Origin: Euglena gracilis | Taxonomy: Eukaryota | DNA length: 49,095 nt | Assembly (NCBI GenBank): GCA_039621445.1 | Contig: CP154954.1 | Coordinates: 9,612,634-9,661,728, forward strand | Direction: 5' to 3' | In this document: positions 11,261 to 44,650 of the stretch, piece by piece | How positions within the stretch are numbered: position 1 is the stretch's first letter | How the letters are laid out: every line of letters begins with the position of its first letter | The notes under the pieces: generated by a model | Database searches by the model: none | Told to the model about the DNA's origin: nothing | Seen by the model: the letters and a program-made list of their open reading frames with translations, nothing else | Made by a program: the position numbers and the translations under genes

Positions 11261-11429
11261 CATGCACAGGGTTTTGTTTTTGGGCGGGTCCCCAGCTGCC
11301 ATATTTTTTTGTTTTTTTTGTAAGCAACTTCTCAGCTGCTATTTTTCAAAAAAAATTTGGACAGGATGAGAGAATAATGGAACGAAATCTTCTCCACTGT
11401 GCTGGATGAAGCTGCCAACTGACCCTTCT

Positions 11430-15589: not shown

Positions 15590-15850
15590 TCAAACGGAGA
15601 TCACACCGAGAGGGACAACGTTCATTCTCACAAACACGAGAGCATGGACAGACTTGTCACTCAGACTGTTGCGCATCGGGCTATGCAGGACCTTAAGATG
15701 GCTGAAAGCCCTTTCCACAGCTGCTTCAGTTGGAGCAATGGACAGCACTCGCAAGGCAACCTGCGCCAGCTGTGGACAAGACACCACTCTCAGCTTCCAA
15801 TACTGCTCCAGGTCAGTGTCCTCAGAAGTGGTGGGGAAGGGGGCTGCCTT
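15590..15850 (-). pseudogene. hAT transposase C-terminal dimerisation-domain remnant
   Basis: YWKLRVVSCPQLAQVALRVLSIAPTEAAVERAFSHLKVLHSPMRNSLSDKSVHALVFVRMN is the canonical hATC pattern (W..P.L...A...L..P......ER.FS.......RN.L). The upstream part is replaced by other repeats. Confidence 0.85.
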
Positions 15851-17458: not shown

Positions 17459-17616
17459 CATCACCACCACCACCACCACCACCACCACCACCACCACCAC
17501 CACCACCACCACCACCACCACCACCACGATCATCATCATCATCATCGTCATCGTCATCGTCATCGTCATCATCATCATCAGCATCATCAGCAGCAGCAGC
17601 ATCATCATCATCATCA
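17459..17616. repeat. Compound microsatellite (CAC)n-(CAT/CGT)n-(CAG)n
   Basis: Direct reading. Confidence 0.95.
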
Positions 17617-18823
17617 TTGGATTCAAAAAAAATGTACCAAACCACAAATCCACCGCATTGGTGAACTATGTGCACAACAACAGAATGATAACGTCAACTG
17701 CATCAGGGGTGTTTTGTTGCAGATGCTGTGACCATAAATGAGCTCTAAGAAGAAGATGCTGCTTTCAAATAATTCAAATGAAAACATCTTTTACATCCAA
17801 TTCAGGAAAGAACAGCCACTTCCTAAACTGAATTTTTATACATTAAATGTGTCCAGACAGTTCAGCACTTGGTTTCACCCTCCCTGGGGGGGCGGGGGTA
17901 CCCTGTGCTATGGGGCAGGAAGTTTCAGTTGGGAGGACCCTTGGGACCTTCCTGGGGGCGTAGTTAGCAAATTTTCGGCTGCAGCCAGTGGAAATCCCCG
18001 TGGCCCGCCCTGGGGCACTCAAGCAAAGCGATGGCGACAAATATTTGGGTAAATAATGAATCACATCCCAAAAAGCTGAGTTTTAACTTTCTTGCCCCCC
18101 ACCAACCAGTCCTCATAGGGTATCTATGGCCAGGCTCCTTTTAAAGAAGGCTGCACCCCCCCCTCCGGCGCCGAAGGTGCCGGGAGCCAGAAAAAATGGC
18201 CTATTTTCAAAAGAGAGGTCGATAAAAAATTGTTTGTCCCCAGCCCAACATGACAAGTTTATGGGGTGGGCCCCATACTCGGCCTTACTTTGCGAACCTT
18301 CCTAACAAGCCGGCAATGCCTAATTGTATGCTGTGCCGAAATGAGTGTGCGCCATTCAGGCACAAAAACAAGGCAAAAAAGTGCCCCCCCCCCCACAGAA
18401 AACACCAACACCAAATTGCCTGGGCACAGGCCGAAATCCGACCCGGGGGGGGGGGGGTAGTGCCTGCCTGGGCCTGCACTTATAGGCACTCCGAACCCCC
18501 CTCCCCCCCGGGGTTGGTAAAAAACTGCCTGATGGAGTGTCCCTCAACCCTCTCGATTTGTGACGCTCCAACCACCCCTGGTGACTGAACACCAAACCCT
18601 GGCCTCAGTCCTCCCCCTTCCCTTGGCCAGCCAAAAACAATGTGTTTCAGAAAAATAGACCGTACCATACGGCCCAACTGCTGTTGGACGACTTGTTTTC
18701 ATGTGTGGGAAAAGCTCGGACAAGTTGCAGATTTGGTCGAGGGTACACTTATATTCTCATTGTGTCAGCAATGCTAGTTCTCAAAGGCCTGTTGGTGGAT
18801 CTCTCCAGCAAAGGGTCTTATTT

Positions 18824-19316
18824 TTGAATTTTTGTGAACTCACCAAACCCTTATCGAACCCGCGTTTGGGCTGATTTTTGAGACAGCAAAAGCCTTAGGT
18901 CTTCGCCCAAACACGGTATCAGAACAAGAACAGCGTTTTGGGCCAAGGTTTTTAGGGGTGCCGGAGGCGACCGGCCGCGACGCCTTCGGCGGCGCGGTTC
19001 CCATCCCCAGGCTCCCCCTAACAATTGGCCCAAACACAGTTTGTAACAGAGAAAAATTTTGAACCCGCCTAACGTCGTCTTGATACTTGATTCCCAGGGT
19101 GCCAAAATTTTTTCAAGCATACAATATAATATACCAACAGTAGCAGCAGCAACAATGAGGAGTAGGACGACAACAACAACGACAGTATGATGATTATATA
19201 GCCACCACATGTAGCCATCATGTAGCCACCACATTATTTGATTAATAATGCTACTACTACTACTACTAATAATATTTGTCCGGATTTGGTTGATAATTGC
19301 AATGTTTCATTGCCTT
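18824..19316. repeat. Dispersed repeat; the second copy at ~23064-24860 is split by the 23371-24602 insertion
   Basis: Shared GAATTTTTG..CACCAAACCCTTATCGAACCCG.GTTTGGGCTGATTT start and ATATTTGT..GGAT.TGG..TAATTGCAA end, with a variable trinucleotide-rich middle. Confidence 0.75.
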
Positions 19317-20054
19317 GTGAATTTTTTTTTGTTCATTTCACATGGCATCACAAGAAATTTCAGTTTTATGCCTTTTTTTTTGCAAATGAGCGCATGATTT
19401 CTGACTGATCACAACCACTCACAACCTTCAAAGAACCAGTTTGCTGGGCAACTGCTCTTTGATCCTTTTCTCCCTTCAAAGCCCTGTGAATGGCAGGATG
19501 TCCGTTCAGGCACCAGCTTTGGTTTTCTGATTTGTCCACTCCTCAGAATATACCAAGGATGAATCATGGGACGTTTTCCCAAACTTTCTGTCCACGCAAA
19601 CAACGAGCGCTTTGGCCAGGCCATTGCCCAGTGGCATGCTGAAGCAGTCTGGTCCTCAGCCATGCAATCATGGCCCGACCCTCCTCTCCCGGGGCGGGGG
19701 AGGAGGTCGGTGGTGACTGACTGCTTTTTGACCCAAACCCCTTCCCCTCTGGAGGGCAAACACCCGCCAAAAATGGTCTGTCGCCGAAGGCAAAGGGATT
19801 TTTTTTTCGGCCATTGGCCTCGCATTTATTGGCCAATTTCCCTTAGATTCCAGAATGACCGACCCTGGCGGGGGGGGGGGGGCAGTGACTGACAGGTTTT
19901 TGAAAGAGTGGAAGTGACCCCCTCCCCGGAGGTCGATAAAAAATTGTAATTGTGGCTTCTAAATGCAGCATTGGATGAGATGAGGCCAGAAGGAACGTCG
20001 GGTCTGGGTGTTCTTCCCCCTTTGTCGCCGTTCGCCCACAGGTAGCCCCGCCCC

Positions 20055-26765: not shown

Positions 26766-27067
26766 GGCCAGTTTTGGGCCAGATGTGTGGCCAGTTTTGG
26801 GCCAGATGTGTTCGTCAGTTTTGACCAGAGGTCATGGCCAGTTTTGGGCCAGATGTGCTGGCCAGTTTTGGGCCATGTGTGGTGGCCAGTTTTGGGCCAC
26901 ATGTGCTGGCCAATTTTGGGCCACATGTGCTGGCCAGTTTTGGGCCAGATGTGATGGTCAGGTTTGGGCCAAGTGTGCTGGCCAGTTTTGGGTCAGATGT
27001 GATGGCCAGTTTTGGGCCACAGGACGTGGCCAGTTTTGGGCCACAGGCTGTGGCCAGTTTTGGGCCA
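26766..27067. repeat. ~24-bp tandem minisatellite GGCCAGTTTTGGGCCA(C/G)ATGTG(C/A)T
   Basis: About a dozen degenerate units; a shorter array lies at ~10404-10480. Confidence 0.9.
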
Positions 27068-30000
27068 CAACCTTTTCTCAGGAGTTCTTTGGGTGCGATT
27101 CTCGTGGAGGGGGGGGGCGCAAAAGGGTTTTTGCGTTTTTTTTGGCAAAATTTGTGTTGGGGGGCTTTTCTGTGCTGCTCGGTTGTTTTTCTGCCCCCCT
27201 CCGTCTTCTGGCGGAGTCATATAGTGCTCCCGTTGCTAGGATGTTGATCGTTCAATGAAACCGGAAGTGCTTCCCAGCTCGAATAACTAAATAAGACGAG
27301 ACTACTTTTAGTTGCGGTTCCGACTGCTCGCCGTTGACACATCCGCCGGCATGGATGTTGCGATTAAACCTGGCGAGCACAGCCGTCGAGCGTAATAAAA
27401 ACCGGCGAGGTTGTGCCGCTGTGGCTTTGCCCTTCTTTAAATTTTGGCGCTCTCTGGTGGGCACTAAAAAAGGAGGAGGCGCCCCAGCCGCGGCCAGCCA
27501 CGGCTAGCCGTGGCTGGCGGCTGGGAGAAAAGAGGAGGAGGAGGTCTGGCTGGTGGCTGGTGAAAAAAAGAGGAGGAGGAGGTCTGGCCGGTATCTGGCT
27601 GGCCGTGGGGACCCCAGCTCCACAGGGTGACAGGGCTCTGGGAGGGGTGCGGGTTGATGGGTCCGGTGTGCAGGGGGTAGGGGGAGGAGGGGTCCAGGGT
27701 GCAGAGGTGTGACGGTGCAGAGGGTGTGTAGGGGTGGTGTGCGGCGGGCAGGGCGGTGGGGTGAGACGCCCGCAGGGGTTGTCAGTGGGGGCTTGGTTTA
27801 CAATATGTATTGGCTTGTGTGCGTGCAACCCAGGACTTTGACCTTGGTGTTTTTGTGAGGCACTAAAACAGATATTTGATGTTGATGCGTGCAATTGCGC
27901 AAATAAAACGTATGGTGTTGTGCGTGCCAGGGTAGGAGAGGGGTGCCGGTGGAAGAACCAGATGGTGGAAAGAGATGCGGATGAGAGGACCACACACAAA
28001 ACAAAAAACTGAACCAGACAAACAAACCCCCGGCGGGCGGGGATACGCTTGCCGCCCGAGCGCCTGGCTGAACAGGACGCGCGCTGGTTGTCAGTGGGGT
28101 GGTACTTGGGGGAGGGGTATTTTTTTTTTGTGACACGGGTGAGAGGGGCAGCACGGCACGAGAGGGGGAGGCAGGTCACGAGAGGGGTGTCACACCAACC
28201 CCCCCCCAAAAAAAAACTACACAAGTCCACCCCCCGGCAGGATAGAGGGCATGGGGATGACGTAGGCGGTGGGTGGCCAGCGGGGGGCGGTGTACACGGA
28301 CACCACGGCAGTGGGGCACCGTCTCCAGCTGGCAGGCAAATGACAAAACAACAAAGTGTGCGTTTTACTTGCGCAATTGCGCGCATCAACATAACATGAA
28401 GATGAATTCTTTTATTTGAAATAAAAATTCTGAGAGGGGACAGACCATGGCCGGGAGGGGACTGAGAGGGTGAAACACTTGTAACAGAAACATTTGCGCA
28501 AATGCGCGCATCAAAAGTGTTTTACAAAAAAAAGAGATAATGAGTATAGCATGCAGCGGGGAAGAGAACCAACAGAAAAAAAAAACTTTAGAGACAGGCC
28601 CACAGCCAGTCTCACTTCTTGTGCTTGGAGAGCCGCTTGGCGAGGCTCTCCGAGGCGGCTGCCGGTTTGCCACCGGGCTTCGGCAGCCCGCGGCGGACGG
28701 GGCCTGCCGGGGCCTCCTCCTCCTCGGACTCCTCCTCTTCGGACTCCGCCTCCTCTGGCGCTGGCGCTGCGGCCGCCGCTGCCTGCGACGACGTTGCCTC
28801 CGCCGCCACCTTGGCCTTGGCCGCGTCGATGATGTGCTTCATCGCCGGGGGTACTTCTTTGGGGGGTTCGAGGAGGTGGTAGGAGACCCCCTTGGGGCCT
28901 TGAGGCCTCCCCGGTCCGGGTGGACGGATCAGCCCCGCTTGCTTCCACCGGGTGTCCTCCTTGCCTTTGCCCCTTCCCCTTCCCCTCCCCCTTCTTCTCC
29001 TCCACCTTCTTCTCCTCCCCCTTCCTCTCTTTACCCTTCTGGGGCTCTGGCTTCCTGAACCCAGGGGTGATCTCCTCGATGGTGTCCTCCTCCTCTTCCT
29101 CTTCTCCCTCCCCTGCCGGGACTGCGGGAGCTTCGCTGGCGATCGGCGAGGAGGTGTTGGAGGTGTCGCTGCTGCTGCTCTCCTCCGCCTCCGGGTGCCG
29201 GCTGGGCTGGGCCACCGGCGGCGGCACGATGGCGGGGCTGGCCTCCTCAGGCTGGCTGGCGGGCGGGGTCAGCTCCGGGGTCTCCCGGCCGGGGGCGGTC
29301 ATCTCCACGTCACTGCCCTCCTCCGGGCTGTCCACTGCCTCGGCCTTCTCCCGTCGGGCCTTGGGGGGCGGGGGCCTGCTGGGCTTCTTCTCAGGCTCCT
29401 TCTTCCGCCGCTTCTTCTTGTTGTCACCCCCCTCCTTCTGGCGCTGCTCCTTGGTCTGGCGGCGCCGCTCCTCGGACTCCTTCGCCCTCCGAGCTGTCTC
29501 CTCAGCGGCCAGGCGGAGCTTGTCCTGGAGGGCGGCGTTCTCCAGGGGGACCCACAGGGGGTCCCCCCCTTCCAGGGCGGCCAACAGCAGCGGCAGCATG
29601 GCGGAGGTGACGGGCCGGGGCAGCGTCACCGTGTTGCCCATGGTCTGGGCGATGTCCTCCAGGCTGCTGGCGGAGTCCTCCGCCACCACCAGCACCTCGG
29701 GGGGGCTTGGCCGCCCAGGCCGCCACCCGGGCCGCCACCGCCACGTCGGCGGTCTGGATCACCATGGCGTTGGCCGCCTCCATCCGCCGCACCACCCTCC
29801 GCCACAGCCACTCCACGCAGAGCCAGTGCAGCCCCGCCCTGCAGCTGGACTCCACGTCCCACTCCACCTTCGGCAGCACCTACGAGAGGAGACAGACATA
29901 CATAGAAAGAATAAAGCCTTTTTGTACAGAAGGTGGGCGCAATTGCGCAAATAAAACGGGAACACTTCATTAAAAGCAGGCGGCTTGGCACTGGTGACCT

Positions 30001-30359
30001 TCCGGCACCCAATATGTAAAGCATATCATGCCAATCTGCACACTGGGACATCCAGGGTGCGTACCTTGCCCCGCTCCACGTCGCCGGGGCCGAACACGAC
30101 CACGAGGGCCCTCTTCTCAAACTTGCGGGCCACCCCCTGGCCCCCCTGCCGCAGCCAGACGTCCACCATGGCCGTCTCCCGCCCCGGCGCCAGCAGCCGC
30201 ACCGCCGTCTCCACCGCGGCCACCGCCCCGGCAGCGCCGTAGATGACGACCGGCACGACGCCGGCTAGGCGCTTGACCTGCTCGGCGAGGAGGAGGCAGG
30301 GTTCTGTTTCAGATAGCGTATTTATTTTAACCACGGTGCGCAAGTGCGCGCACAATAAC

Positions 30360-31017
30360 TGTTTACCCCGGGCGCCCCCCCTGCGGGTGTCGGACCGAAA
30401 ACCCCAGCCCCCTGGCCGGCTGATTCCTGCCCGTCACCCACCCCTGGGGCTGATATTCCCTGGTAGGGCCCAGTGTTTTTCCGGGTGGTGGAGGGCTCAG
30501 GCCACCCCCCGTTTCGCCCACTGGTAGTATACCCCCCGACCAGAGGGGGGTGCGTAGGATCGAATTAGCTTTTTCGTGGAAATCTTGTACAAAATCAAAA
30601 TTCCGCTCCAATGAAAATGTTTCTCCAAACTTTGATCCCCATGAGGCCATTTCACTCCTCCTTTCTTCTGGCATGCAAAAGATTGAGAATGGGTAAGGGT
30701 GGTGTTTTGTTCACTGAAATGGTGGTCAAAAAGCAACAATGACACACCGTGAATGAGGAAAGGTGGGACCTGACCTTTGAACTTGAAATTCTCAAAAATG
30801 ACAATTCTTCAATGAAATAATTCTTGAGGACTTCAATTCTCAATTGTATGCAACAAAGAAACCCACAAAAGTCTGCGGAAGCAAATTGTGCTGAATTGGA
30901 ACCTCAAATTAGGCTTTTCCTATAGAACGCGCGTTCTGCGCGGAATGAAAAATTCCGTGTTTTCAAAAGCTTCCGCCCTGCCATTTTTGACTGTCGGACG
31001 CCCCCCGACAGTCGACA
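30360..31017 (-). repeat. 3' LTR (658 bp)
   Basis: Matches 42442-43097 with about 5 substitutions and 2 small indels by eye. Confidence 0.95.
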
Positions 31018-31028
31018 CCCCCTCCCTT
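31018..31028 (-). promoter_or_regulatory. Polypurine tract AAGGGAGGGGG
   Basis: Directly abuts the TG of the 3' LTR on the minus strand. Confidence 0.85.
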
Positions 31029-32376
31029 GCGACATTAGTCGGACCCTCAAAAAAATGAAAATTGAATAGAAAAGCGAAGACATGGAAAAAAAATCAGAAT
31101 GAAACAAATGCAAATGAGAATCCTTCACCAATGTCTTGAGAAAGAGAATGATGAAACGCCTATGCCCCTCGCTTAGTGTTACCTTGCCACAAAAACAAGG
31201 CACACGGCACCACTTAGCGGCTTCAAAAAAAATGCGAAAAACGTCCCCCTTGAAAATCCAAGCGCCCCCCCCCCCACAGGCTGGGGGCATGAAAAAAAAA
31301 TGGCAAGAAAAAAAAATGGCCATAAACTCCGTTAATGTCATTCAAAACAGAGATGAAAACTGGGCTACCCCCCCCCCCCCCACCAATCAAAAAAAATCGT
31401 GGGGAGAGTTCTGACTTTTTGCACCCCGGAGGGAAAATGTTGGAGGGAAATTTTTGGCCCCACCCCCCCCCGAACATTCGGCGTGACCGCTTGGGGAGAG
31501 TTCGGACAGCCCCCACCCCCCCCCCCCCCCCCGGTGCTTGTGACTTACTTTCTCATGGCTCACCAAAAAACTCGAATTCTTGGATTGGACGTTCTCTTGC
31601 ACTACACAATCTTGGTGGACATCCGAAATGCAACCAACCCTCCATGAATGAAATCCGGTGAAATTCACTTAAAAAATAACCATTCACAGGGTCGTCGCAT
31701 GGTGTATCATACATCAACCGAAAAATCAGGCGGTCTCCATCACACAATCCTTTGGACACGGGCATGGGAATGGGCGACCCCCCCCTCGACCGAAACACGT
31801 TTGGAGGGAGCTCACCCAAAAATCGGAGAAATTCAGCCCCCCCCCCCCGCATCCACGGAGAAGGTGAGGCTTCTTCCCCCTTGCAACATTCACCAATGAC
31901 TCGGAATCCAAATAAATCATCAAAACTCCATACATTTTGGGCCGCTCTCCTACACAGGGGCTATGGCTCAACCTTGGTAAAAAAAGCCAAATCCTTCGGT
32001 CCCCCTTTCCATTCACGGTATGGGAGGGTGAGGTCAGGGTGGGGAATGTAGGGAGGGGGGTGCGGGGTTCGGGTAGCGGGTGTTGGGGCCGTTTATAAAG
32101 AGGAAAGCCCCAACGGGGCTGGGCTATGGACAAGTTGGGTGGTGGTGTATTCGGTTGATTGGGTAAAAAGGCTTCATCTCCTCGTCTCGTCTCCTCATCT
32201 CATCTCCTTGTCTCGTCTCCTTGTCTCGTCTCCTTGCTTGCGTAGGGTGCTCGCCTCCTTCCTGCGGTGGTGCGCTCGCACTTTTCCCTTGGGGCTCCCT
32301 TGGGTGTGCTTGGAGCCTCCAAGTCCTCAAAACCTGTGAGAGCAAAGCGAAAGAGAAGAGCAAGCACAAAATATGC

Positions 32377-32378
<2 letters not shown>

Positions 32379-32412
<34 letters not shown>
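32379..32412. repeat. (GA)n microsatellite in the retroelement 3' region
   Basis: Direct reading. Confidence 0.9.
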
Positions 32413-32414
<2 letters not shown>

Positions 32415-32617
32415 AAATTCATCACATGCTCGAAAAATCAAAACATATGAGAATCATGGAGTCAAAAACAAAAGGTATGATGCACATAAGCAATGCACAA
32501 GCACACAAACAACTCGCCGAAACAGCACTTGGCCCAACTCAAAGCAAGAGCCTCAAACATTTGGGCTCCCCGATCAAAAAAAGAGCAAAATGGACCGAGC
32601 CTTCAACTTTCGGCTCA

Positions 32618-34100
32618 CTAGGGTTTCAAAGATTTTTTCAATTCGGACATCAAATCGACCCCTAGGTTTTTCTTCGTGCAATACCTCACCAACTCCTCAC
32701 TAAATCGGTGTATGAAATTCCCCACCGGCTCCCAGGTTTCCTCCCCCTCGTTGTAACCAACCCATTTCGTGAGGAATTCCCAGGTTCCCCCCTTCTTTCG
32801 GTGGTTCAGAATTTTTTCAACTTCCCACTCATCAGGCATTGCTTCCTCTTCTTTTTCGGTCCTCTTGAAAAAGAACAAAGGCACCCCCTCACCAAAAACT
32901 TCAGGCTCTTTGTATTCCTTAAGGAAACTACGATGAACCTTCATTTCCATCCCGGGTTTAATTTCAACAATGTAACTCCTCTCCCCCTCCCGGGCTTTAA
33001 TAATCCCAGGTCCAATCCATCTGGAATCCAATTTTTCTCCGGATCCTTCGGGTCTCCTATACCACACTTGGGTTCCCAATTTTAAGGGTACCAACTCCCT
33101 CCTCCCTTGGTTGACCCAACTCGCTTGAACCCAATGTGCGTGGTTGAGAACCTTAGCAACTTTCTCATCCACCTCCTTTATTCGGCGAAAGAAACTTTGA
33201 GCGTCCTCACACTCCTTCGGTGTTTGATAGGGTATTCCCCCAATGGGTCTATCCCTTCCAAACAAAATTTCGTAAGGACTAAAACCACTCTCCCCCTTGG
33301 TGTCATGAATGCGATCCAAAACTTGGGGAAGTGCTTCCACCCAATTCATTTTTTCCTCCACAAACAACTTTCGGAGGATTTCCATAATTTGTTGGCCGGC
33401 TCTCTCCACCCTCCCATTTGCTTGGTGGTGGTAAGCTTGGGAAAATGCTTGCCGAATTCCCATGAGCGAACACATGGTTTGCCACCATGTGTTGACAAAA
33501 TGGCTCCCTTGGTCACTTGAAATTATTGACGGGACTCCAAAGGGTTTCCATTGGGCTTTAAGCATTTCCTTGGCCAATTTTGCACCCGTTAATCCTTTAT
33601 CAAAACACGGTATGGCTACAATCCAACCGGAATGTCGGTCCACGCAAACAGCCATTGTGTTGTACTCCCCCCTCGTACAACCTCTTCTGCATTTTGAAAA
33701 GATCTATAGCCACACGTACCCTGGGCGCGGGTGGTATGGGTTTTAAGTCAATTGTTCCTTTCAATGTCTCCCCCCTCAAGCTCGCTTGACAAGTTGTGCA
33801 ATTTTTGCTACAACTGTCGGTGAAAACTTTCGCCTTCTTTTCATCAGCCCATGCATACCTCAAATTGACGTGCCTCCACACCTTTTCCGGACCAACGTGT
33901 CCAAGAAATTTGTGGTTTTCAAGGATGATCATTTCTTGAAAACTTAGTGGAATGCACAACTTCTCCTCTCGAAACATTTGGTTTTTGTGGACTTTCACCC
34001 CCTTAGGCCACTCACCATTTTCTTGTGTTGCTTGCCAAATCTTTTTCCACGTGGGACACAAAGTGTATGCAACCACCCAATCTTGCTCCCAAACCGATTT
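32618..34100 (-). pseudogene. pol: Integrase (HHCC zinc finger, DDE core, GPY/F-like module) with C-terminal chromodomain (~32680-32830); frameshift near 33660-33690
   Basis: H-KFLG-H...CTTC; AIDLF; SDQGSHF; ANGRVER; RWIGPG; WEVEKILNHR..FLTKWVGY..ETWEP. Confidence 0.92.
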
Positions 34101-34539
34101 TGTTCCCTCAGGGGTTACACTTGGAGTTGGCGCGGCCATACCTCCTCTCCCGTACCCCCCCTCGGCAACTCATTGGATGAAAGCTTTGGGTTGGTCACCA
34201 AATTACCCGCGGGGTCCACTCCATCCCAAAAAGTGACTCTCAACTTTTTGTCCTTTTTCCCCTTTGACCTGGGCCCTTGTGTGTGTGTGTGTCAACGGTG
34301 GTGTCTATGCCTCCCGGATTTACTACACCTCGGTTCCCTTCTCTCTTGCATGCTATCCATAGAATCTTTTGGTTCCACCAATTTCCCGCTACGGGTTATC
34401 ACCCCTCTAATCCACGTGTTACGGTTGTTGGGCTGATTTTTCACTCTAATCCACAAACAATTTCTTTCGTCTTCCCTTTCCTCTCTTATGAGTTCCTCCA
34501 TTTCTTCCTTATCCTCGGCTGAACCGTGTTTGCTTACGT

Positions 34540-35100
34540 CCCTTAATGCTTGTGAGGCCGGGTAAGCCCACCGACTCAAAATGTCGGCAATTGTGTTTTC
34601 TTTACCCGGTATGTACCCCACCGTCAAATCATATTTTGAAAAAATCTGGTGCCATCGTGCCCTCCTACCCACCGGACCACTGGGGGTATCGAGCACCTCT
34701 TTTGACCATGCCTCCAAACTTTGGTGGTCGGTCAACACCAAAACGGGTTGAAGACCGATCCAACTTTCCCATTTTTGGAGAGCCAAAATTATGGCATAAG
34801 TCTCCAACTCCCGGGGGGTCCATTTCCTTTGCCCCACGGTAAGTTTTCGGGACATGAAGGCAATAGGCACCGTTTTCTTATCCATCACATCTTGGGGTGT
34901 GGGCTTACCATTTCCTTCCTTTAGTTGTTCTAGTGTAGCCCCCACGGCGTACCCACTTGCATCTACCCTTAATACAAAGGGTTTATCGGGGTCTACACGT
35001 TGTAGGATTAAGCCCGAACACAAACGTTTCTTCAACTTCAACTCCTCAAACGCTTGGAGATCCCCCTCCCCAAATTCAACTCTTTTTCCTTTTTTTACCA
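34540..35100 (-). pseudogene. pol: RNase H domain (Ty3/Gypsy type)
   Basis: FVLRVDASGYAVGATLEQ, IAFMSRKL, RELETYAI, VLTDHQSL, YIPGKENTIADILSR. Confidence 0.92.
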
Positions 35101-36500
35101 ACATCCCTAGGCACCTTCAACTTGTCTTGCAAGGGTGCGGCAATTTGAGCATACATATGGATGTATGCATTGTAGTAGTTGGTAAAACCAAGAAAGGCTC
35201 TTAATGCGGTTATGGTTGTGGGAACCTCCCATTTCTCAATGGCACGAAGTTTGCCCGGTGCTGGCCATCGGGCACCATGACCCAAAATTTGGCCACAAAA
35301 TTCCACTTCCTTGATGAACAATTTTGCCTTTTTTGGGTCCACCACAAAAAATTCTTTGGCCAACAAATCCAAAACTCGGCACAAATCCCTTTTGTGCGCC
35401 TCTAGGAGGTCTTCCCCCTCCCCAACGGTTGTCCCACCAAAAATATCATCTGAGTATGGGGTTGCTATGTCCCTTACGGGTGCTAGCCTCTCATCCATCA
35501 TTTGTTGAAATTGTTGTGAGGCGTTAGTTAACCCCATTACATTGACCCTCCATTGGTAGAGACCCTTTGGTGTGAAGGAGCAAGTTATTGGCCGGCTATC
35601 CGGGTGAAGCGGTTGTTGTTGGTGGAATGCTTGTTTTAAGTCCAAAATGGAGAACATTTGGTTGCCACCATGCTTAGGTTTCTAGCGGGTGGCACCTACT
35701 TTTATTGGGTTTGACCTCCTCCAAAGATTTTTGGGTCGGGATTTGGAGAGCTTTTTTTTTGTTTCGTCCAAATTTATTTTTTTTTCTCGTTTTTTTTCCA
35801 ACATTCTTAATTTCCGTTTCCTGTTTTTTCCCAGTGTCTCCTCCTTCTTGGTTGCATCCCAAGGGCCCCCCTTGTGGGGCTACCCCGTTTCTTTTCAATT
35901 TTCTCCCCCTTTCATTCATTTGCTTCCTTTCCTTTTAAATCCCTCCTTTTCGGGGATGGTTGGGGGTTCTTGGGTAAATTTTTTGTCGTTCTTTGCCTTT
36001 TTGGGTTTGTTTGGTCTCTTTGGCTTTTTGCCGTCCCCTCTTGGGGCTAACAAGTTGTGATGTCGCGTTGTCCCTTCTCGTCCCCTGCTCTTGTTCGTTA
36101 AATTGTCCTTTGAGTGTTGCGTTCTTCCCCCTTAGCTCCCTTTTTTTGGCCCCTATCCGGTGGCCCTTTTGGTTTTTTGTTAATCTGGCCGCCCTGGGGC
36201 CCACCCAGGATATCTTCGATTTTCGGAAGAGGGTAGTTGCACCTACGGGTTGGCTATTGGGTCCCCTCATGTCAACAACCCCCCTCCAAGGAAAAACTGG
36301 AGACTTTTTGGGCACGGGGAAAGTTTGTGAGAGCAATTCTGAATTTTTTGTTGTGGCTGGCTCGATGAATTTTATTCGATCCAATCTTGAGTGATTTTTT
36401 CCAAAGCTTCTTTTCGTTCCCCGTGCATGAAGAATGGTTTTTGTCGAGTTGGTGTTGCTCCTTCCTTCAAAGGTATAAAAGCATACCCATAGGGTCCCCT
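35100..36500 (-). pseudogene. pol: Reverse transcriptase, frameshifted and interrupted by a ~530-bp insertion (35677-36205)
   Basis: FPVPKK..WRGVVDMR.PN, YPLPKIEDIL, FSILDLKQAFHQ, MGLTNASQQFQ, YSDD, FCGQIL, LRAFLGFTNYY. Confidence 0.92.
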
Positions 36501-36887
36501 TATGGGTGGTTCCGGGTATACCGTTGACCTAAAAACCGTTCCTTCATATTTTTGTTGAATTTCCTCCCTTAATAGCCTTAACTTGCCTTCATCCTTATCT
36601 TCCTCCTCTTCATTATTTGCATCCCCCCCCTCCCTTGCAATTATCATCCGTCGGATGGGTTGGGGGTTTGCTTCGGACACGTTCAAATTTTTGTGCAAAA
36701 AATTCAGGGTTCGGTCATCCAAAAAGCGACTTCTTTGATCAAACCCACTCAAAGGTAGTTGGAAACCAAATTTGTGCAAATGGGCCGTGCCCCCCTCTTG
36801 GGGCAAACTTTTTGAAGTGTTTGAGTGTCGCCGTTTTCTGAAATCACGCACACCAAACAAAAATGTGAGCTCGGGGGTTTCCAAAAC

Positions 36888-37250
36888 CAAAGCTCGGTGA
36901 TGTGGAAAAACTCCAAGTTTTGCTTGGGCAAGCCATGGGAATGACAAAATGGCATCCACTTTTATGTTTGCTTCGTAAAATTCCACTTCATACTCAAAAC
37001 ATTCGGGTGGTGTCCCATTATTCTCCTCCCCAAGCAACTTCATTCTCACCTTAGTGCACCTTGTCCCCCCTCTTAAAACTTGGCCGTTAGCCGTTTCAAA
37101 CTTAAGGGGATTTTCAGCCGAGTGCATTAGGTGATCGCTTACAAATCCTTGCCTTATGAGGTTTGCTTCCGCCCCCGTATCCACCAATATATTCATATCC
37201 CGTTCCTCCCCATTGACCAAAATTACCTTTGTGCGAATCAAAAGTTGCCG
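36888..37250 (-). CDS. pol: Retropepsin aspartic protease domain
   Basis: ILVDTGAEANLI ... DAILSFPWL within the 796-aa ORF 36372-38762. Confidence 0.9.
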
Positions 37251-37367
37251 ATCCTTGGAAAACTTGCTTACCCCTGTGGGTGAATACGTTTTTTTCACCA
37301 TACGCGACTTCAAACGTACAACCTTTGGTTCCTTAGGCGTGTTAGTGCTAGTGGGGGGCTTATCACC

Positions 37368-37763
37368 CTCTATCAACAAGGCCCAAACTCCCCACTTCAC
37401 ACCTCCCATGGGTTTCCCATCCACTTCGAAAAGCTTTGTTCCAGGCTGAAAATACAATTTTTGTGTCGCCTTTCGCACAAGTTCTCTCACCCATCCCCTT
37501 TGCCAATCGGGAACAATGCAAATTGCATCACACGGGGTTTTTTGCAACTTTTTTGCCACCTTATGCCATAACGACCATGGGGGATTCAACCACACCGTGC
37601 CCCCCTTCCCCCAATCAACGCTCAAGGCATTTTCCTCCTTCGTCAAAAAAGAAGCACATTGAGAATTTTTGGTTGAGGCAAAACAATCCATTTCGGCTCT
37701 CCTTTGAAATTTCTCCTCAATCAATTTCACAAAGGAGTTTCTCACGGCATAGTCCTCCCTTTT
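37368..37763 (-). CDS. Dam-like (phage/DIRS-type) N6-adenine DNA methyltransferase domain
   Basis: MDCFASTKNSQC, NALSVDW, catalytic VWLNPPW, IVPDW; uninterrupted frame. Confidence 0.85.
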
Positions 37764-37790
37764 GAAGGAAAATTTCTCCTCCTTAAAATC

Positions 37791-38393
37791 AAGGGCCGAA
37801 AGAAGATATTCAATCAAATTTTGAGGCATTCTCCATTTTTGATGTGTGCTCGTATGCATATGCCTCCCACCCAATTGCTCCTTGTGTGCCCACCTGCCCC
37901 CCTCCTTCAACACCATGTTGGGGCAGGTTTTTCCATCACAAATTTTGTCCTTCAAACTTAAGAGATTCTCACTCCCCCAAATACGGGTTGGTTTTTGGTA
38001 TCCCCAATCAGAAAATTGGCAATAATCAACATCAATGAAATTCAAATTTCGAACACATTGCCGTTTGGGTAAATATCCCGTACGGGGATTTTCAATCCAC
38101 CACAATTTGGGTTGAAAATATTCCACGATCTCCAAAGTTTTTTCGACAAGGCGATCTGCCGTTTGCATGTCCCTACCCCCTATCGTTTTTGCAAGGCTAT
38201 ACTCCGTGCATGGCACACCGGCCGCAATAACTTCAAAGTATCCCTGGGGGTATTTGCGATAATCCCACTCCAAAATGTCTGTTACGTGGGTTGGGTGAAA
38301 TTTTGGGTTGACATCCAAAGATACCACCTGGTATCCGTTTTCCTCCAAACCCCTCCCCACAGATCCTTTTCCCGAAAACAAATCCAACGCCTT
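37791..38393 (-). CDS. C5-cytosine DNA methyltransferase domain (compact viral/phage type)
   Basis: Motif I ALDLFSGKGS, II SLD, III DIL, IV GVPC, VI IENP, VII VDYCQF, VIII QKPTRIW, X-like RMPQNL; uninterrupted frame. Confidence 0.9.
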
Positions 38394-38825
38394 GGGAATT
38401 CTCCTGCTTCCCACACCTTTGATGGATCCTCTTCCACTCAAACAACCATAATAATTGTTGAAACTGGGCCGTGCACTCTCCTGGCTTGCACACCTGGTCC
38501 ACGGTTTGGGTCGAGTCCACGGTTTGCCCGGCTTGCCCTTCCTCGACACGGGCTGCCATTGGCTCGAGGCCACTTGCCTTCTTGAGTCAATTGTTGATGA
38601 TGAATTCATTGAATTGCCTTCAGTTGCACCATTGCCTGTCTTCGGCATTGCAAACTCTTGATTGGTTGACTTTGAACCTGAGATAGAGGGACTGGAAGAT
38701 AGATATACACATTCTCCAACATGGTAACATTCTCCACATGGAGATGTGGTTGGGTTATGCAAAATATTGCGGGGGTTTTTAATGCCCGAGGATGTAAACC
38801 CCTCAAAAACATGACCCCGGCGTCC

Positions 38826-41800
38826 CTAAAGATGAACTGGGGGTGTAACATTTCGGTTTGAATTGTACCCCCCTCCCTTCCAACCGTTGCCTTTGGAAGA
38901 ATCTTTCCCTTGGCCTTTGCCTTTGCCTTTTCCTTTTTGGGAAGATTGTTGATTCCAATTTTCATTCGATTGGCTGTACCCCCTTCCCCCATATCGTCCT
39001 TGGCCTTGATAATTTTGAGCACCCTTGAAACTTTGGCCTTTCCAAGAGTTTTGGTTTTGATTTTGGGGTTGCCAAGTTGGCCAAGGAGACGATTTTGGTG
39101 GTGCTTGAACCCAAACTCCACCATTGGTATTTGGCACAGATTTTGGAAGTTCTGCATTTTGTGTAAGATTTTGGGCCTGACTTTCAGTGGAAATGGGAAC
39201 AGGACCATTCGAAGCATTGGGCAAGTCAGAACCTGTGGACTTGGGTGTAGAAGATGTTGGAGATGCCACCTGCTTTCCAGAAAAAGAACGTTTCTTTGAG
39301 GGGGAACCCTCCCGACTGTTGGATTTTCCCCCTTTGTTCTCCGCCCCCACCGATCGAGAACGTCTGTATGAGGTTTGGCTGTGATTGGGGTTTAGCATTA
39401 AGTCTTGCCGATCTCTGAGTGCCAATTTTGAAGTCACGAGACGGAAAATGTCTTCAACACTCAAATTTGGTTCATTTTCTCGAACCCGAACCAAAACATT
39501 GGAATCATTAAATTCTTTCCCATTGTAACTTTTGAGTGTTTCACAACTTTGCACATCAGGCAACACAATTTCGAATTCCGTCTCACTCAATTTTGTGACC
39601 CTTGTGGGTTTCTTCCCAGCGAAAATCATCACAAAATTTTCCATAATGGCTGTGGAGGTTGGCTGTGGATAGTTCATTCGAACGGTTGGTTGGCTGGTTT
39701 TGATCCGTTCTTCCTCATCAGTAATCCAATGCACAATAAAAGGAGGCATTTTTTCGATGAGTAATCTTTTCACCTCCCCCTCACTAGCATCCTTGATTTT
39801 CTGTCGACACAACTTGAAGTCAACCTTGAAATTTTCCCAATCACGACTTGTAACCCTCCCTTGATGGCATAATGTAAGATCCCGAAAGTTTTTTCTGGCC
39901 CCAAACTCTTCATTTCTCGAATGCCAGGCATCCAACTTGGCCCACACTTCATTGAAAGTGAGTGTCTCCCCCATTTCATCCAAATGCAAATTCAGCTGTT
40001 TTTCCCCAAATCATCCAAACAAAGTTCTAGGAGGCCCAATTTATCAGCTTCTGAAACTTGATTGAATTTTCGGATGAATCTCCCCCACTCATCCTTGAAG
40101 TTTGGCCAATCACCTGCATGACCTGAAAATTTCGGGACAACAACATTTCACAAAATGTGTTGTTTAGCTGCAGACGCCACAGTCATCATTGGTGACCGTT
40201 CAGATGCCCCCCCTATGGCATTGATACTCACCTGGCCCACCATTAATGATCCATCCCCTAAATCTGGGCCCCCTTCCAATCCCAGATTAAGATCCCAGAT
40301 TTCAATTGGCTGAACCGGCTTCACTCCCTTAATTCCAACAAAACCAGAATTCGGCTTAAAAACTGGCTTGGGCTGTGTCACCGTAGATGCCTTGGGCTGA
40401 ACCGTTTCAGTCAAAACTTGTTGCACCCTCCTTTCAATGGCCTTCAACCGTGCCTCAAAATTGTTGCACAGATTTTGGACAACCTCCCTATGGCTTTTTT
40501 CCTTCGAAAAATCTGTTTGAATTTTGCCCAAAATCGCACAAAACTGCTGTTTCATACAATTTTCCATGTCATTTCGCCACTTGTCAAAATGTTCTTCTTT
40601 TTGCACTTGTCTCATTTTTTCCTCCATCATTTGGGTCATCATGATTTCCATCATTTTTCTGACCTGAGCTGCCATTTCCCTCCGAACCTGAATTTGTATC
40701 GTTTCTTCTGTTTTCCCCATCATTTCAACAACTTTGTCCCAAGGCACCTCCTGGCTGCCCAGAAATTTCTCGATCCCAGCCAATCTGTCCCCCAGAGCTT
40801 TGCTCTCCTGATTCACTGTCTGAAATCGCTGCTGCATATCACTTACTAGTGTTCCAAAATTTGTCTTAGAGTCCTCCCCAACAGTTTTCAGCCCAGCAGC
40901 AATTTCAGTGAATCGTTGGTTTACCCCAGAGCACAGCTCACGGTTTGCATTCTGAAGCGCAGAAATCTCTTTTTGCAACTCCAATTTGTTTTCTCCCGCA
41001 GCCCGAGAACAAATCCCAACTTGGTCAAAAAGACCTGAAAATCTGGCTTCAATTTCCTTTTCCCTTTTCAAAATTTCGCTCAACTGCCCATCCAAAAAGC
41101 TCTTCACAGATTTCTCAAAAATCTGGGATTTTCCTTCAACCTGTCTTTCAACTTCGATTGACAAAAGTTGCTTGTGGCAGTTTGCAATATTTTCCACAGC
41201 ATTCCCCCCTTGCTGGCACTGTGAAATAAAATGGCTGACTGACTGCTGAATTTCCTCCTGAGTTTTCTGTTTTTGCTGTTCAAACTGGCTGCAAATTTCA
41301 GCATTTCGCCGTTCCACATTTTCCTGAATTAAATGTAAAAGTTCAGCCTGTGCTCGAGAATTTTTTGCACCCAATTCTCGCTCAAAATTTTCCAGCCGGT
41401 TTTCCACAACAACCTGGGGGGGTATAATACTTTCCCAGTGAGTTAAACTTCGGTTCAGCTCAGCTAATTGGCAATCCACCCCCTGGGCCCAATTATCCCA
41501 TGCGTCCCAATCTGAAATGTCAGCCCCCCCCACCTGAACTCCTAAATCAGGTGGCTGGGGTTCCATTTCTTCATCCTCCTCCACCTGGGTTTTTGATGTT
41601 GCCACATTAAACACCCCCGATGATGATGCACCACAACCCAGATTTACAGATTGCACCCCAGAAAATTTTGATTCAGAATACATTCTGGTCGATTCCGAAA
41701 AAAATGTCTGTCCATCGACAGTTATTTCGTTGTGGCTGGCTGTCCCCCTGTCTTCCAACAATAAAATTGGAGTTACCCCCTCAATCTGGGGTATTTCGGC

Positions 41801-42754
41801 TCCAAAATTTGGAAACTGATTTGGACCAAAAATCTGAAACCTGGGGGGTATCCAACCTGCAGCCACCAAAAGTTGTTCTGTTTCTTCAAACTGGCTGAGT
41901 CCTGACCCCCTGTCACTGTCAATTTCACTGTCGCTTTGATACTGGGGGGGTGAACCTGTCCATTGTACCAACTGATTTTCATCCCCCCCCTGTGATTCCT
42001 GGGGACTGGCCGTTATCATGTTAATTCCAAACACATTTTCTGGGTTCCCACCTGAAAAGTCTGAGCTTGAAATTTCTGAACACGCATCAGAGCCAATTTG
42101 TGATTGAGAATTCCTTATTTCCACAGATGCAGAAGAATTCAGGTTCACTGATTCCAAAAAAGCTTCACTGATTTCTACAGATGCAGAAGAATTCAGGTTC
42201 ACTGATTCCAAAAATCCTTCACCAACAGAGTTGAAGCTGCCTCTGTTAATCATGTTTAGCCGAGGGCTGCAACTTCCAACATTTCCACAGATTCTGTTGG
42301 TATGACCAGCAGAACCTGTCTCTGTAATCATGTTTAAATCTTCAGCAAGATTACTGCTGGCTGTGCCATCAAAATTGTCCGTATTTTCTGGGCTGAAAAT
42401 TTTTTTGTCAACTGGGTTGGCAAAAACTCCTCTGCGTACCATGTTTACCCCGGGCGCCCCCCCTGCGGGTGTCGGACCGAAAACCCCAGCCCCCTGGCCG
42501 GCTGATTCCTGCCCGTCACCCACCCCTGGGGCTGCCATTCCCTGGCCAGGGCCCAGTGTTTTTCCGGGTGGTGGAGGGCTCAGGCCACCCCCCGTTTCGC
42601 CCACTGGTATACCCCCCGACCAGAGGGGGGTGCGTAGGATCGAATTAGCTTTTTCGTGGAAATCTTGTACAAAATCAAAATTCCGCTCCAATGAAAATGT
42701 TTCTCCAAACTTTGATCCCCATGAGGCCATTTCACTCCTCCTTTCTTCCGGCAT
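38826..42754 (-). pseudogene. gag: Very long Gag-like region (~1300 aa reconstructed): acidic/coiled-coil N-terminus, capsid-like core, RRM-like module, G/K-rich tail
   Basis: The 868-aa ORF starts inside the 5' LTR. An in-frame TGA (40148-40150, possibly CGA>TGA) is followed by VPKFSGHAGDWPNFKDEW, and a 1-nt shift near 40000 joins the 387-aa ORF. Confidence 0.75.
42427..42441 (-). promoter_or_regulatory. Primer-binding site TGGTACGCAGAGGAG (initiator-Met-like)
   Basis: Starts with TGG immediately after the CA of the 5' LTR. Equals the complement of a tRNAiMet 3' end (TGGTAGCAGAGGA) with one extra C. Confidence 0.7.
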
Positions 42755-43097
42755 GCAAAAGATTGAGAATGGGTAAGGGTGGTGTTTTGTTCACTGAAAT
42801 GGTGGTCAAAAAGCAACATTGACACACCGTGAATGAGGAAAGGTGGGACCTGACCTTTGAACTTGAAATTCTCAAAAATGACAATTCTTCAATGAAATAA
42901 TTCTTGAGGACTTCAATTCTCAATTGTATGCAACAAAGAAACCCACAAAAGTCTGCGGAAGCAAATTGTGCTGAATTGGAACCTCAAATTAGGCTTTTCC
43001 TATAGAACGCGCGTTCTGCGCGGAATGAAAAATTCCGTGTTTTCAAAAGCTTCCGCCCTGCCATTTTTGACTGTCGGACGCCCCCCGACAGTCGACA
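42442..43097 (-). repeat. 5' LTR (656 bp)
   Basis: Direct repeat of 30360-31017; 9-bp-stem hairpin GACTGTCGG..CCGACAGTC at its outer end. Confidence 0.95.
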
Positions 43098-44205
43098 TAA
43101 CTTTTGCGCAAATGCGCGCATAAAAAATACTTGTGACACATCAAACAGCGGAAGGATCTGTGTGCACCTGAAGGTGTCAATCAGAACCGTTATTTTATTT
43201 TTGAAGCGCGCAAATGCGCAAATAAAACAGGAACACTTTTTAAAAAGGAAGAATTCAACTAAACAGGACCCTGAGCCGGTGTTTTGGGTGACCTCGACGA
43301 TGACGAGGCCCACTGCGGCCCCCAGCGCCTCCGCCGGTACCCCCTCTCCGCTGGCCTTGTAGACCAGGCACCGCACTCCTTTCTCCTCACCGGCCGGCCT
43401 GGCCGCCACCACCTCCTGGAGGGCCCCGCCCTCCTTGGACGTGATCTCCGACTCCACCGCCGGCAGCGCGAAGGAGGCCCGCAGCTCCTCGAACTGCGCC
43501 TCCACCCAGAAGGGGGCGGTCAGCACCGCCGCCAGGGCCTCGGCTCCACCGGGCTCCAGGTCCACGACCCGAGCCGCGCCACTTGCAGGGCGGCGACGGG
43601 CACCGTCCGCTTGAAGCGGCTCCTCTCCGTCGCGTTGTGCACTGTGATGGGGGCAGTGAGTGAGGGAGACTACAGTTACACTACCGCACAGCATGCAATC
43701 CACCGTGCGCGCGTGCTGGTCTGCTGTCATATCCAACACCACAGTTGCACCCCAGACCCCAGAGCACTGGCACACCGATCTGGCCGTGGATGTTGGGGTT
43801 GTCGCTCCTCCGCGTGAAGGCCACCCACATCTCGTGGGTGGCCTCCGTCACCGCCTGCTCCAGCTGGGCCAGCCCGATCTCCGGGCTCTGCAGCGCCGCC
43901 GCCACCTGGGCCCGCGCCTCGGGGGTCAGCAGGCGCCGGAGGGACCGCATGTGGAAGGACAGCAGCGTGCGGCCCCTCGCCGCCAGCGCCGACTCCACGC
44001 TGAGGAGGCCCGCCACCGCCTCGGGGGTCTCCTCCACCAGCCGCTGCAGCGGCCCCCACATCTTGATGACCTCGCCTTGAGGCAATGACATAAGACACAC
44101 ACACCTCATCCATGCATCGCAGGAGGAAGGATAGTAGAAGGGAGAAAGGGGGTGGGAGGGGGGGGAGGGGGGGGGGGTGGGGGGGGGCGGTGGGGGAGGT
44201 TGGGG

Positions 44206-44224
44206 GTTTTTTTTTTTTTTGTTT

Positions 44225-44281
<57 letters not shown>

Positions 44282-44315
44282 TTTTTTTTTTTTTTTTTTT
44301 TTTTTTTCTTTTTTT
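44206..44315. repeat. Poly-T tract adjacent to a G-rich tract, intronic
   Basis: Direct reading. Confidence 0.9.
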
Positions 44316-44650
44316 GATGCGCGCAATTGTGCAAATAAAACAGTACACTGTCATTCAATGCACAGGCAGACTGGCAGTGGGCTCACACCTGGGGGACCGA
44401 CCGGTCCCAGCCGGCCTGCCGGTAGGCCGCCGCCAGCCGCACCGTCGGCACCGTGGAGATGTCCTTCCCCTTCACCAGGAGGTTGGCGAACTGGGGGATG
44501 GACAGCTCCTTCACCGCCGACTGGATGGCCTGCGCGTCTCCGCCGGCGGCCCGCCGCAGGTGCACCGGGGTCATGGGGTGGAGGATGGTGGCGAGGACGT
44601 ACTTGCCCTGGCAACAGCCCTGCACTTGAACCTTTGTATTTCAGACACAG

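Follow-up and report, generated by a model that had tools for sequence, protein, structure and literature searches.

Does a single retrotransposon of Euglena gracilis carry, within its own Pol polyprotein, enzymes for both 5-methylcytosine (5mC) and N6-methyladenine (6mA), and is this arrangement the property of a family or the accident of one copy? The question was raised by a stretch of 49,095 nucleotides of E. gracilis DNA (assembly GCA_039621445.1, contig CP154954.1, positions 9,612,634 to 9,661,728 of the forward strand), which is called the window below and whose coordinates are used throughout. A complete long terminal repeat (LTR) retrotransposon of 12,738 bp was found on the minus strand of the window, at 30360-43097. 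We hold with good confidence that it is a recently inserted copy of a very high-copy, chromovirus-like Ty3/gypsy element of the type that a preprint of 22 May 2026 calls EpiLTR (bioRxiv 10.64898/2026.05.21.726589).

On its sense strand, the element reads LTR, ORF0, gag-like open reading frame (ORF), in-frame TAG, Pol, LTR. Pol in turn consists of a basic N-terminus, a C5-cytosine DNA methyltransferase (DNMT) domain, a Dam-like methyltransferase (DAM) domain, protease (PR), reverse transcriptase (RT), RNase H (RH), integrase (INT) and chromodomain. There are thus two METHYLTRANSFERASES in pol, first the C5-DNMT and then the Dam-like domain, and both lie upstream of the protease in a single frame. 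The part of pol that carries them is laid out as follows.

36372-38825, minus strand: first open part of pol (P0001), 817 codons, with basic N-terminus, DNMT, DAM, protease, linker and start of RT
37785-38405, minus strand: C5-cytosine DNA methyltransferase domain, P0001 amino acids (aa) 141-347, assigned by Pfam PF00145, by the structure model and by structural matches
37359-37760, minus strand: Dam-like domain of the N6-adenine methyltransferase type, aa 356-489 of P0001, carrying D-x-F-A-S and N-P-P-W, assigned by Pfam PF05869 and by the model

The original prediction had described a single uninterrupted ORF at 36372-38762 that encodes the two enzymes about 10 residues apart, then the protease and the start of RT, in a Gypsy element ending in a chromodomain. 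The frame proved to be open from stop to stop over 36372-38825, with the predicted interval inside it, and the residue numbers given for it equal P0001 numbers minus 21. All the quoted catalytic motifs were found in P0001: motifs I (DLFSGKGSVG, containing FSGKG), IV (GVPCTEYS, containing PC), VI (IENPR, containing ENP) and VIII (QKPTRIWGS, containing QKPTR) of the DNMT, and DCFAS..N and WLNPPWS of the Dam-like domain. The S-adenosylmethionine (SAM)-binding motif I was found in both domains. The spacing corresponded to a linker of about 8 residues in the structure model, the protease (its Pfam score below the cut-off) and the start of RT followed in the same frame, and the Gypsy assignment was borne out by the LTRs and by a chromodomain match above the Pfam cut-off.

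Profile searches and structure prediction, by which the two folds were to be checked, assigned both of them (Pfam, AlphaFold2, Foldseek and VIA-align). PF00145 scored 28.7 bits on the whole ORF (cut-off 22; aa 146-248) and 33.3 bits on the isolated domain (E 4.8e-8; cut-off 22), a partial match to positions 3-113 of the 324 of the DNA_methylase profile. PF05869 scored 50.1 bits on the whole ORF (cut-off 28.1; aa 364-423) and 52.9 bits on the isolated domain (E 4.4e-14; cut-off 28.1), likewise partial, at positions 17-75 of the 169 of the Dam profile. The AlphaFold2 model calculated from the single sequence reached a predicted local distance difference test score (pLDDT) of only 32.3, while with a 76-row alignment of relatives (A2) as input the mean pLDDT was 90.5, at a predicted template modelling score of 0.71. 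This model contained two compact domains, P0001 141-347 and 356-489, on either side of the low-confidence linker. Foldseek matched the DNMT domain to DNMT3B, DNMT3A, M.HaeIII and M.HhaI with E of about 3e-9 to 9e-8 (DNMT3B 3e-9). In VIA-align, model residues 19-228 were superimposed on DNMT3B 569-848 (Z 14.5, 202 aligned), and the domain matched DNMT3A (Z 14.2) and M.HhaI 11-320 (Z 13.8, 193 aligned, root mean square deviation [rmsd] 3.4). A search of PDB sequences with the alignment profile found DNMT1 (E 6e-4) across motifs IV-VI. In the Protein Atlas, the clusters nearest to the cassette were short phage DNA_methylase proteins, at 0.85, which is below the level of a trusted lead.

The substrate is less directly indicated by structure, and here an alternative has to be weighed: RNA or an RNA-DNA hybrid could be the substrate of the Dam-like domain, perhaps of the DNMT as well, with m6A or m5C formed there rather than on double-stranded DNA. 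In VIA-align, the Dam-like domain matched the zebrafish cap-specific adenosine N6-methyltransferase 6irx_A (Z 10.8, rmsd 2.9, 129 aligned). Of the 50 structural matches listed, only this mRNA cap methyltransferase covered model residues 233-371, and the structural assignment of the Dam fold draws on this one match row. DNMT2 tRNA methyltransferases also matched the DNMT domain (Z 10.4-10.7), and the accessible text of the preprint reports that eukaryotic DAMs yielded no 6mA in E. coli DNA, with a hybrid substrate raised by its authors (10.64898/2026.05.21.726589). On the other side, the 50 matches were filled by the DNMT domain, so that the Dam-like domain was barely tested by them; Pfam places the Dam-like domain in a DNA adenine methyltransferase family; the DNMT domain is closer to the DNA enzymes (DNMT3B 14.5, M.HhaI 13.8) than to DNMT2; and DAM-LTR insertions are reported, in the same text, to be enriched in genomic 6mA (10.64898/2026.05.21.726589). 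We consider a substrate of RNA or hybrid unlikely. When PDB sequences were searched with A3, the Dam alignment, nothing matched the Dam part. The two candidates, 7zgt_A at E 0.034 and a glycine N-methyltransferase at E 1.2, fell on the motif-I part of the DNMT in permuted rows and were set aside as uninformative on Dam.

Two writers of DNA methylation remain our preferred reading of the cassette, and conservation bears on whether they are enzymes at all. Relatives were collected from predicted proteins of public assemblies, with the cassette (aa 120-500) as query. At E<=1e-3 there were 3649 cluster representatives, 257 of them at <=1e-30; among the relatives, 71 proteins had 449-1430 aa and 26 had 1431-4085 aa. 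For each motif, the count covers every fetched relative aligned across it. Pro-Cys was kept in 185 of 193 relatives, Glu-(Asn/Thr)-Pro in 195 of 203 and Pro-Thr-Arg in 162 of 197; for the Dam-like domain, Asn-Pro-Pro-(Trp/Phe/Tyr) was kept in 36 of 41 and Asp-x-Phe in all 41. NPP was invariant in the 10 rows of alignment A3. Conservation of Asn-Pro-Pro in DAMs is also reported in the preprint, as far as its text is accessible (10.64898/2026.05.21.726589). Three relatives (P0215, P0216 and P0217), in each of which a single ORF of 1763-1911 aa runs from DNMT to chromodomain, were 61-64% identical to the window in the DNMT, 60-66% in the DAM, 51-59% in the protease, 78-85% in RT and 37-45% in the linker between protease and RT.

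Substitution rates point in the same direction for the DNMT. By the Nei-Gojobori method, dN/dS was 0.058 for the metagenomic pair L001/L002, with dS near saturation, and 0.004 for the pair L008/L010 (116 codons, 99% amino-acid identity, proportion of synonymous differences [pS] 0.56); the estimates cover the DNMT of these two distant pairs only, outside the window's clade. The objection that dN/dS might be near 1 did not hold for the DNMT of relatives, at 0.004-0.06 in the two pairs. The metagenome scan gave 21 loci, one of which (L003) had both domains. The locus closest to the window had 50-53% amino-acid identity to it, where pS was saturated at 0.83. Eleven loci (L011-L021; 22-37% identity in the best tblastn segment, DNMT only) are maybe not retroelements and were excluded from all counts.

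These results were set against the possibility that one or both domains are non-enzymatic, serving to bind nucleic acid or chromatin or to recruit the host methylation machinery. Some features would suit such a role. The Dam-like domain is short compared with prokaryotic Dam, with 59 of the 169 profile positions covered, and CD-1 and TR-1 are missing from DAMs according to the accessible text of the preprint, in which the heterologous E. coli assay of DAMs was negative (10.64898/2026.05.21.726589); the target-recognition region of the DNMT is very short, leaving it almost without a target-recognition domain. The catalytic residues, however, were kept beyond what binding would need (PC, NPP[WFY] and D.F, as counted above), SAM-binding motif I was present in both domains, and purifying selection on the DNMT of relatives was strong. 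That one or both domains have ceased to be enzymes therefore seems to us slightly less probable still than a substrate of RNA or hybrid. By sequence and model, each of the two domains is intact, conserved, well folded and a part of Pol, and their activity is a prediction from these properties.

In the eight-row alignment A1, Cys150, Cys177, Cys182 and His195 (cassette numbering) were invariant. They are located at P0001 aa 269-314 (window ~37884-38021), in the short region from DNMT motif VIII to the C-terminal helix, and may form a metal site that replaces the normal target-recognition domain.

Whether the cassette belongs to a family can be judged from the 26 long relatives, in which domains were placed by BLASTP and each of which is a single uninterrupted ORF. 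The following orders were found.

DNMT-DAM-PR-RT-RH and onward, the order of the window: 6 relatives (P0215-P0218, P0222, P0224)
PR-DAM-DNMT-RT-RH-INT-chromodomain: 3 (P0219-P0221)
DAM-DNMT-PR: 1 (P0223)
DNMT-PR-DAM-RT: 2 (P0228, P0231)
DAM-PR-DNMT: 1 (P0234)
DNMT-PR-RT and onward, without DAM: 9 (P0225-P0227, P0229, P0230, P0232, P0233, P0235, P0237)
PR-DNMT-RT: 1 (P0239)
PR-RT-RH-DNMT-INT-chromodomain: 1 (P0238)
DNMT-RT, no PR detected: 1 (P0236)
RT-RH-INT-DNMT: 1 (P0240)

Both enzymes were carried by 13 of the 26, the order PR-RT-RNase H-integrase was likewise seen in them, and at least ten domain orders were present among relatives. Across P0002-P0072 and P0215-P0240, the DNMT stood ahead of PR, between it and RT, between RNase H and INT, or behind INT. 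The DAM stood before the DNMT, after it or apart from it, or was absent, all in single ORFs.

These ORFs decide on a further alternative, in which the cassette is an artefact: a nested insertion (for example of a DIRS element with its Dam), an assembly chimera or a private capture. For mixed architectures in E. gracilis, the accessible preprint text itself names nested insertions, chimeric transposable elements or assembly artefacts (10.64898/2026.05.21.726589), and the window copy does carry one secondary insertion, in RT. In the window, however, DNMT, DAM, PR and the start of RT share one frame without a stop. The same order was present in single uninterrupted ORFs of 6 of the 26 long relatives, which come from other contigs, so that the one-off insertion named by the original prediction as a way to be wrong is not what was found. 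Dam was matched in 7 of the 8 members of alignment A1 and DNA_methylase in 6 of the 8, and the depth of the cassette was similar to that of RT and integrase in four public runs. We regard an artefact as extremely improbable, and for the window's family it is already refuted. Because each relative is a single uninterrupted ORF, the variety of orders among them does not come from nested insertion or misassembly either, and the mixed architectures that the preprint treats as possibly artefactual would therefore be genuine.

The history of the cassette was addressed with a quick maximum-likelihood tree of 80 DNMT domains, each with at least 160 of the 200 domain residues aligned and an informative neighbour; 111 proteins showing only the DNMT were left out. 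The window fell in a starred eight-row clade (Shimodaira-Hasegawa-like approximate likelihood ratio test 98), of which the other 7 members were all DNMT-DAM or DNMT-DAM-PR. On sequence evidence, a supported clade of relatives is defined by the order DNMT-DAM-PR, and uninterrupted full-length polyproteins are among its members. Position labels on the tree required 16 changes against a mean of 40 after shuffling, with none of 200 shuffles as low, and the starred branches alone force at least 6 changes for 'DNMT before PR'. From these counts, the position of the cassette was inherited within clades and yet shifted repeatedly.

The design with two methyltransferases is already known, and its discovery belongs to the 2026 preprint. 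The original prediction had known of no description of both chemistries in tandem ahead of the protease in an LTR/integrase element, nor of one in a euglenid, a claim of novelty that was overtaken because the preprint describes EpiLTRs. According to its accessible text, Dam-like domains are present in non-DIRS LTR retrotransposons, named 'DAM-LTRs', and 'EpiLTRs' are the subset with DAM, DNMT and chromodomain, found in E. gracilis and Cymbomonas tetramitiformis (10.64898/2026.05.21.726589). Neither term was found in any other paper of the literature searched. In keeping with the definition of EpiLTRs, the window element is an LTR retrotransposon that encodes C5-DNMT, Dam-like domain and chromodomain together. 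With the E. gracilis EpiLTR, as that text describes it, it shares a Ty3-like LTR element with DAM, C5-DNMT and chromodomain, the multicopy state and Asn-Pro-Pro in the DAM. The domain order of the E. gracilis element, called a 'structurally distinct configuration', is absent from the text of the preprint (10.64898/2026.05.21.726589), and the tandem upstream of the protease is not matchable to it point by point. The Cymbomonas EpiLTR is also a chromovirus-like element with DAM and DNMT, but its DNMT is reported at the 3' end of pol (10.64898/2026.05.21.726589), whereas that of the window is at the 5' end, beside the DAM. The distant relative P0240, with its DNMT after integrase, may be compared with the Cymbomonas arrangement.

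Other retrotransposons resemble the window element in part. In Symbiodinium and Klebsormidium, DNMTs have been described in DIRS, LINE and Gypsy elements (PMC5890265, from the accessible part of that paper, as for the following points). KnitGypsy-Dnmt3 of Klebsormidium nitens has a DNMT in a Gypsy-type Pol ORF, with conserved catalytic residues and Ka/Ks < 0.2 (PMC5890265); it differs in having no Dam domain and in belonging to the Dnmt3 lineage, whereas the preprint text places the EpiLTR DNMTs as sister to DNMT4 (10.64898/2026.05.21.726589). SymbioDIRS-Dnmt3 and SymbioLINE-Dnmt are retrotransposon DNMTs in a host with near-global CG methylation, for which self-methylation of cDNA was proposed, and SymbioDIRS-Dnmt3 performed de novo CG methylation in yeast (PMC5890265). 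Unlike the window element, they have DIRS and LINE backbones without integrase, chromodomain or Dam partner. A Dam-like (MT) domain of PF05869 in a retroelement polyprotein is a feature that the window element shares with DIRS elements. The latter have a tyrosine recombinase and carry the Dam-like domain downstream of RNase H. In the window element the integrase is of the DDE type, the LTRs are true ones flanked by a 4-bp target duplication, and the Dam-like domain precedes the protease.

The backbone of the element was delimited from end to end, and its remaining features are these.

42442-43097, minus strand: 5' LTR, 656 bp, TG..CA, with the earliest ATGs of ORF0 inside
42427-42441, minus strand: putative primer-binding site, starting TGG, immediately after the 5' LTR
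40148-42790, minus strand: ORF0, 880 codons, upstream of gag, low in complexity in its N-terminal half and rich in heptads in its C-terminal half
38826-40010, minus strand: gag-like ORF, 394 codons, with a basic G/K/N/Q-rich tail, named gag by position only
37041-37217, minus strand: aspartic protease core (DTG), LVDTGAEANL, with Pfam gag-asp_proteas scoring under its cut-off (22.1 against 28.2 bits)
34292-36572, minus strand: RT and RNase H, RVT_1 51.9 bits and RT_RNaseH 86 bits (Pfam), in three frames by tblastn
32618-34169, minus strand: integrase with the chromodomain at its end, Pfam rve 48.9 bits, above the cut-off
32705-32827, minus strand: chromodomain, at aa 293-333 of the final pol ORF, where Chromo PF00385 scored 36.7 bits (cut-off 25.1)
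31018-31028, minus strand: polypurine tract, abutting the 3' LTR (direct reading)
30360-31017, minus strand: 3' LTR, 658 bp (blastn and direct reading)

In a blastn comparison of both ends, the two LTRs differed by 5 mismatches and 2 gaps in 659 columns (98.6% identity); by direct reading of the sense strand, both start with TG and end with CA. The 4-bp direct repeat GTTA flanks the element at 43098-43101 and 30356-30359 as a target duplication. The protease was 55-68% identical to those of same-order relatives in the alignment. The H2C2 zinc domain of the integrase scored 22.5 bits in Pfam, below the cut-off of 25.5. Along the minus strand, Pfam gave the order PR-RT-RNase H-integrase, as in Ty3/gypsy, and the chromodomain is at the C-terminus of the integrase, as in chromoviruses. 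The element is a Ty3/gypsy LTR retrotransposon with true LTRs and a chromodomain.

An extra 5' ORF as large as ORF0 is unusual among Ty3/gypsy elements. No Pfam family scored above the cut-off on ORF0, where only a sub-threshold match appeared, and its best Protein Atlas score, 0.77, was below the level of a trusted lead; in the runs guessed to be RNA, coverage of ORF0 was deep. The gag-like ORF had no Pfam family above the cut-off.

The gag-like ORF ends in TAG (38826-38828, minus strand), which is in the same frame as pol and is followed by GGA. This arrangement suggests that Pol would be reached by stop-codon readthrough rather than by frameshifting. Contigs of four public runs (X1, X2, X15 and X16) were mapped onto the internal region of the element, and a joint from 38492 to 32331 was present in X16 contigs (depth 382), with a variant in X15; both runs are guessed to be RNA. 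For that joint, the depth was 0 in the DNA runs X1 and X2. The stretch that it skips is the following.

32332-38491, minus strand: skipped stretch, 6160 nt, whose loss removes DNMT, DAM, PR, RT, RH, INT and chromodomain

On the sense strand, its borders read CAG|GTGTGC and a polypyrimidine tract ending in CACAG|G, that is, canonical GT-AG. The joint could be a subgenomic spliced RNA, or it could come from transcripts of a pol-deleted derivative. In the runs guessed to be RNA, depth was high over ORF0/gag and over the 3' region. The 1.6 kb from the integrase stop to the 3' LTR (31018-32617, minus strand) contains only frames of 50-157 codons, broken by G/C runs, and may include one more small ORF or a structured 3' region; 31810-32189, downstream of the splice acceptor, was the peak of depth in the same runs.

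The combined proposal would be as follows: the DNMT, with or without the DAM, is a freely recombining cassette that has changed its place in pol on many occasions throughout a large Ty3/gypsy clade, one represented in contigs from many public assemblies, and in addition the dose of the methyltransferase-Pol is set in a retrovirus-like way, by TAG readthrough and by a GT-AG splice that removes pol from most transcripts. We offer the two halves together tentatively, as a proposition only narrowly on the doubtful side.

The family is of very high copy number in public runs. In X1, 10006 contigs mapped to the internal region at >=90% identity, comprising 3146 at >=99%, 3375 at 95-99% and 3485 at 90-95%, and 20 of 24 listed runs, from 15 studies, contained part of the window. 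These contigs also indicated which defects belong to the window copy. Its RT is split between the second and third conserved blocks by one insert:

35676-36205, minus strand: A-rich insert, ~529 nt

The insert is 44% A on the sense strand, six bases at one of its ends could pair with six at the other (GGGTGG with CCACCC), and it had no second occurrence in the window. The RT blocks on its two sides adjoin directly in the relative P0002, and 2 contigs of X1 and 1 of X15 join 35675 to 36205 without it; the insert is private to the window copy or to a minority of copies. An intron was considered, and secondary insertion is simpler given that contigs of a DNA run without the insert exist. Most other copies differ from the window by a single-base insertion or deletion at 36375 (14100 of 16697 depth in X1, 329 of 329 in X2, all in X15 and X16), some also by one at 36249, and the frame is kept in copies with these differences. 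The frame breaks are thus private to the window copy or are assembly errors. As assembled, the window copy is unable to make full Pol.

Several of these observations weigh against an active EpiLTR-type element with two DNA methyltransferases. The pol of this copy is open only to 36372, after which several frame changes and the insert of ~529 nt follow. The Pfam matches of both enzymes are partial, the only Dam-range structure listed is an RNA cap methyltransferase and not a DNA enzyme, and the dN/dS values leave aside the DAM and the window's own clade. Depth over pol was ~10-fold below that over ORF0/gag in two runs only guessed to be RNA. From the accessible text of the preprint, expression of E. 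gracilis LTR elements is low or undetectable, and eukaryotic DAMs expressed in dam-deficient E. coli gave no gain of 6mA (10.64898/2026.05.21.726589). Identity with the E. gracilis EpiLTR family is, moreover, an identity of architecture. The assignment of the window to a recent copy of a high-copy EpiLTR-type family nevertheless remains the one that we favour.

From this assignment, a chain of steps can be proposed. Pol, including both enzymes, would be made from unspliced RNA only, by readthrough of the TAG, and the enzymes would therefore enter the particle in small amounts within Gag-Pol, alongside RT and integrase. In the particle, they would modify the element's own reverse-transcription product or the fresh insertion. 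With 5mC, an insertion would come to resemble the heavily CpG-methylated host genome; 6mA would provide a mark of permissive chromatin that a host maintenance enzyme could maintain; and the chromodomain would steer integration. A higher share of DAM-LTR insertions carrying 6mA is reported for E. gracilis in the accessible preprint text (10.64898/2026.05.21.726589). The full chain, from readthrough Gag-Pol and packaging to self-marking with 5mC and 6mA and targeting by the chromodomain, is possible in our view, and somewhat more open to doubt than the proposal on cassette movement and dose.

Other observations in the window concern composition and neighbouring sequence. The observed/expected ratio of CpG was 0.57 in the element, 0.75-0.81 in its flanks and 0.59 in window 1-20000, which is ambiguous. 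Just beyond the 5' LTR, a long stretch rich in A/T homopolymers (43681-44382) encodes poly-Lys or poly-Phe in open frames, and at 26771-27106 a 24-bp unit is repeated in tandem, about 10 times or more. A weak tRNA-like match was given by Rfam at 9642-9712 on the minus strand (33 bits against a gathering score of 29) and was not called by ARAGORN; no match was found between this sequence and the primer-binding site of the element. Six other long frames of the window had no Pfam match.

To the design described in the preprint, the present analysis adds a fully delimited copy with exact domain borders, evidence of constraint on the cassette and of its shuffling within pol, the breadth of domain orders in uninterrupted ORFs, the private frame breaks and the 529-nt RT insert of the window copy, and two putative expression features, TAG readthrough and a pol-removing splice, which would limit the amount of enzyme. 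As a rule, DNA methylation is directed at transposons. One that supplies writers of both 5mC and 6mA and a reader of chromatin could instead set the epigenetic state of its new copies, with the possible consequence that they are hidden among methylated host DNA while their promoter is kept permissive. Such an element would be a good system for studying how mobile DNA manipulates host epigenomes.

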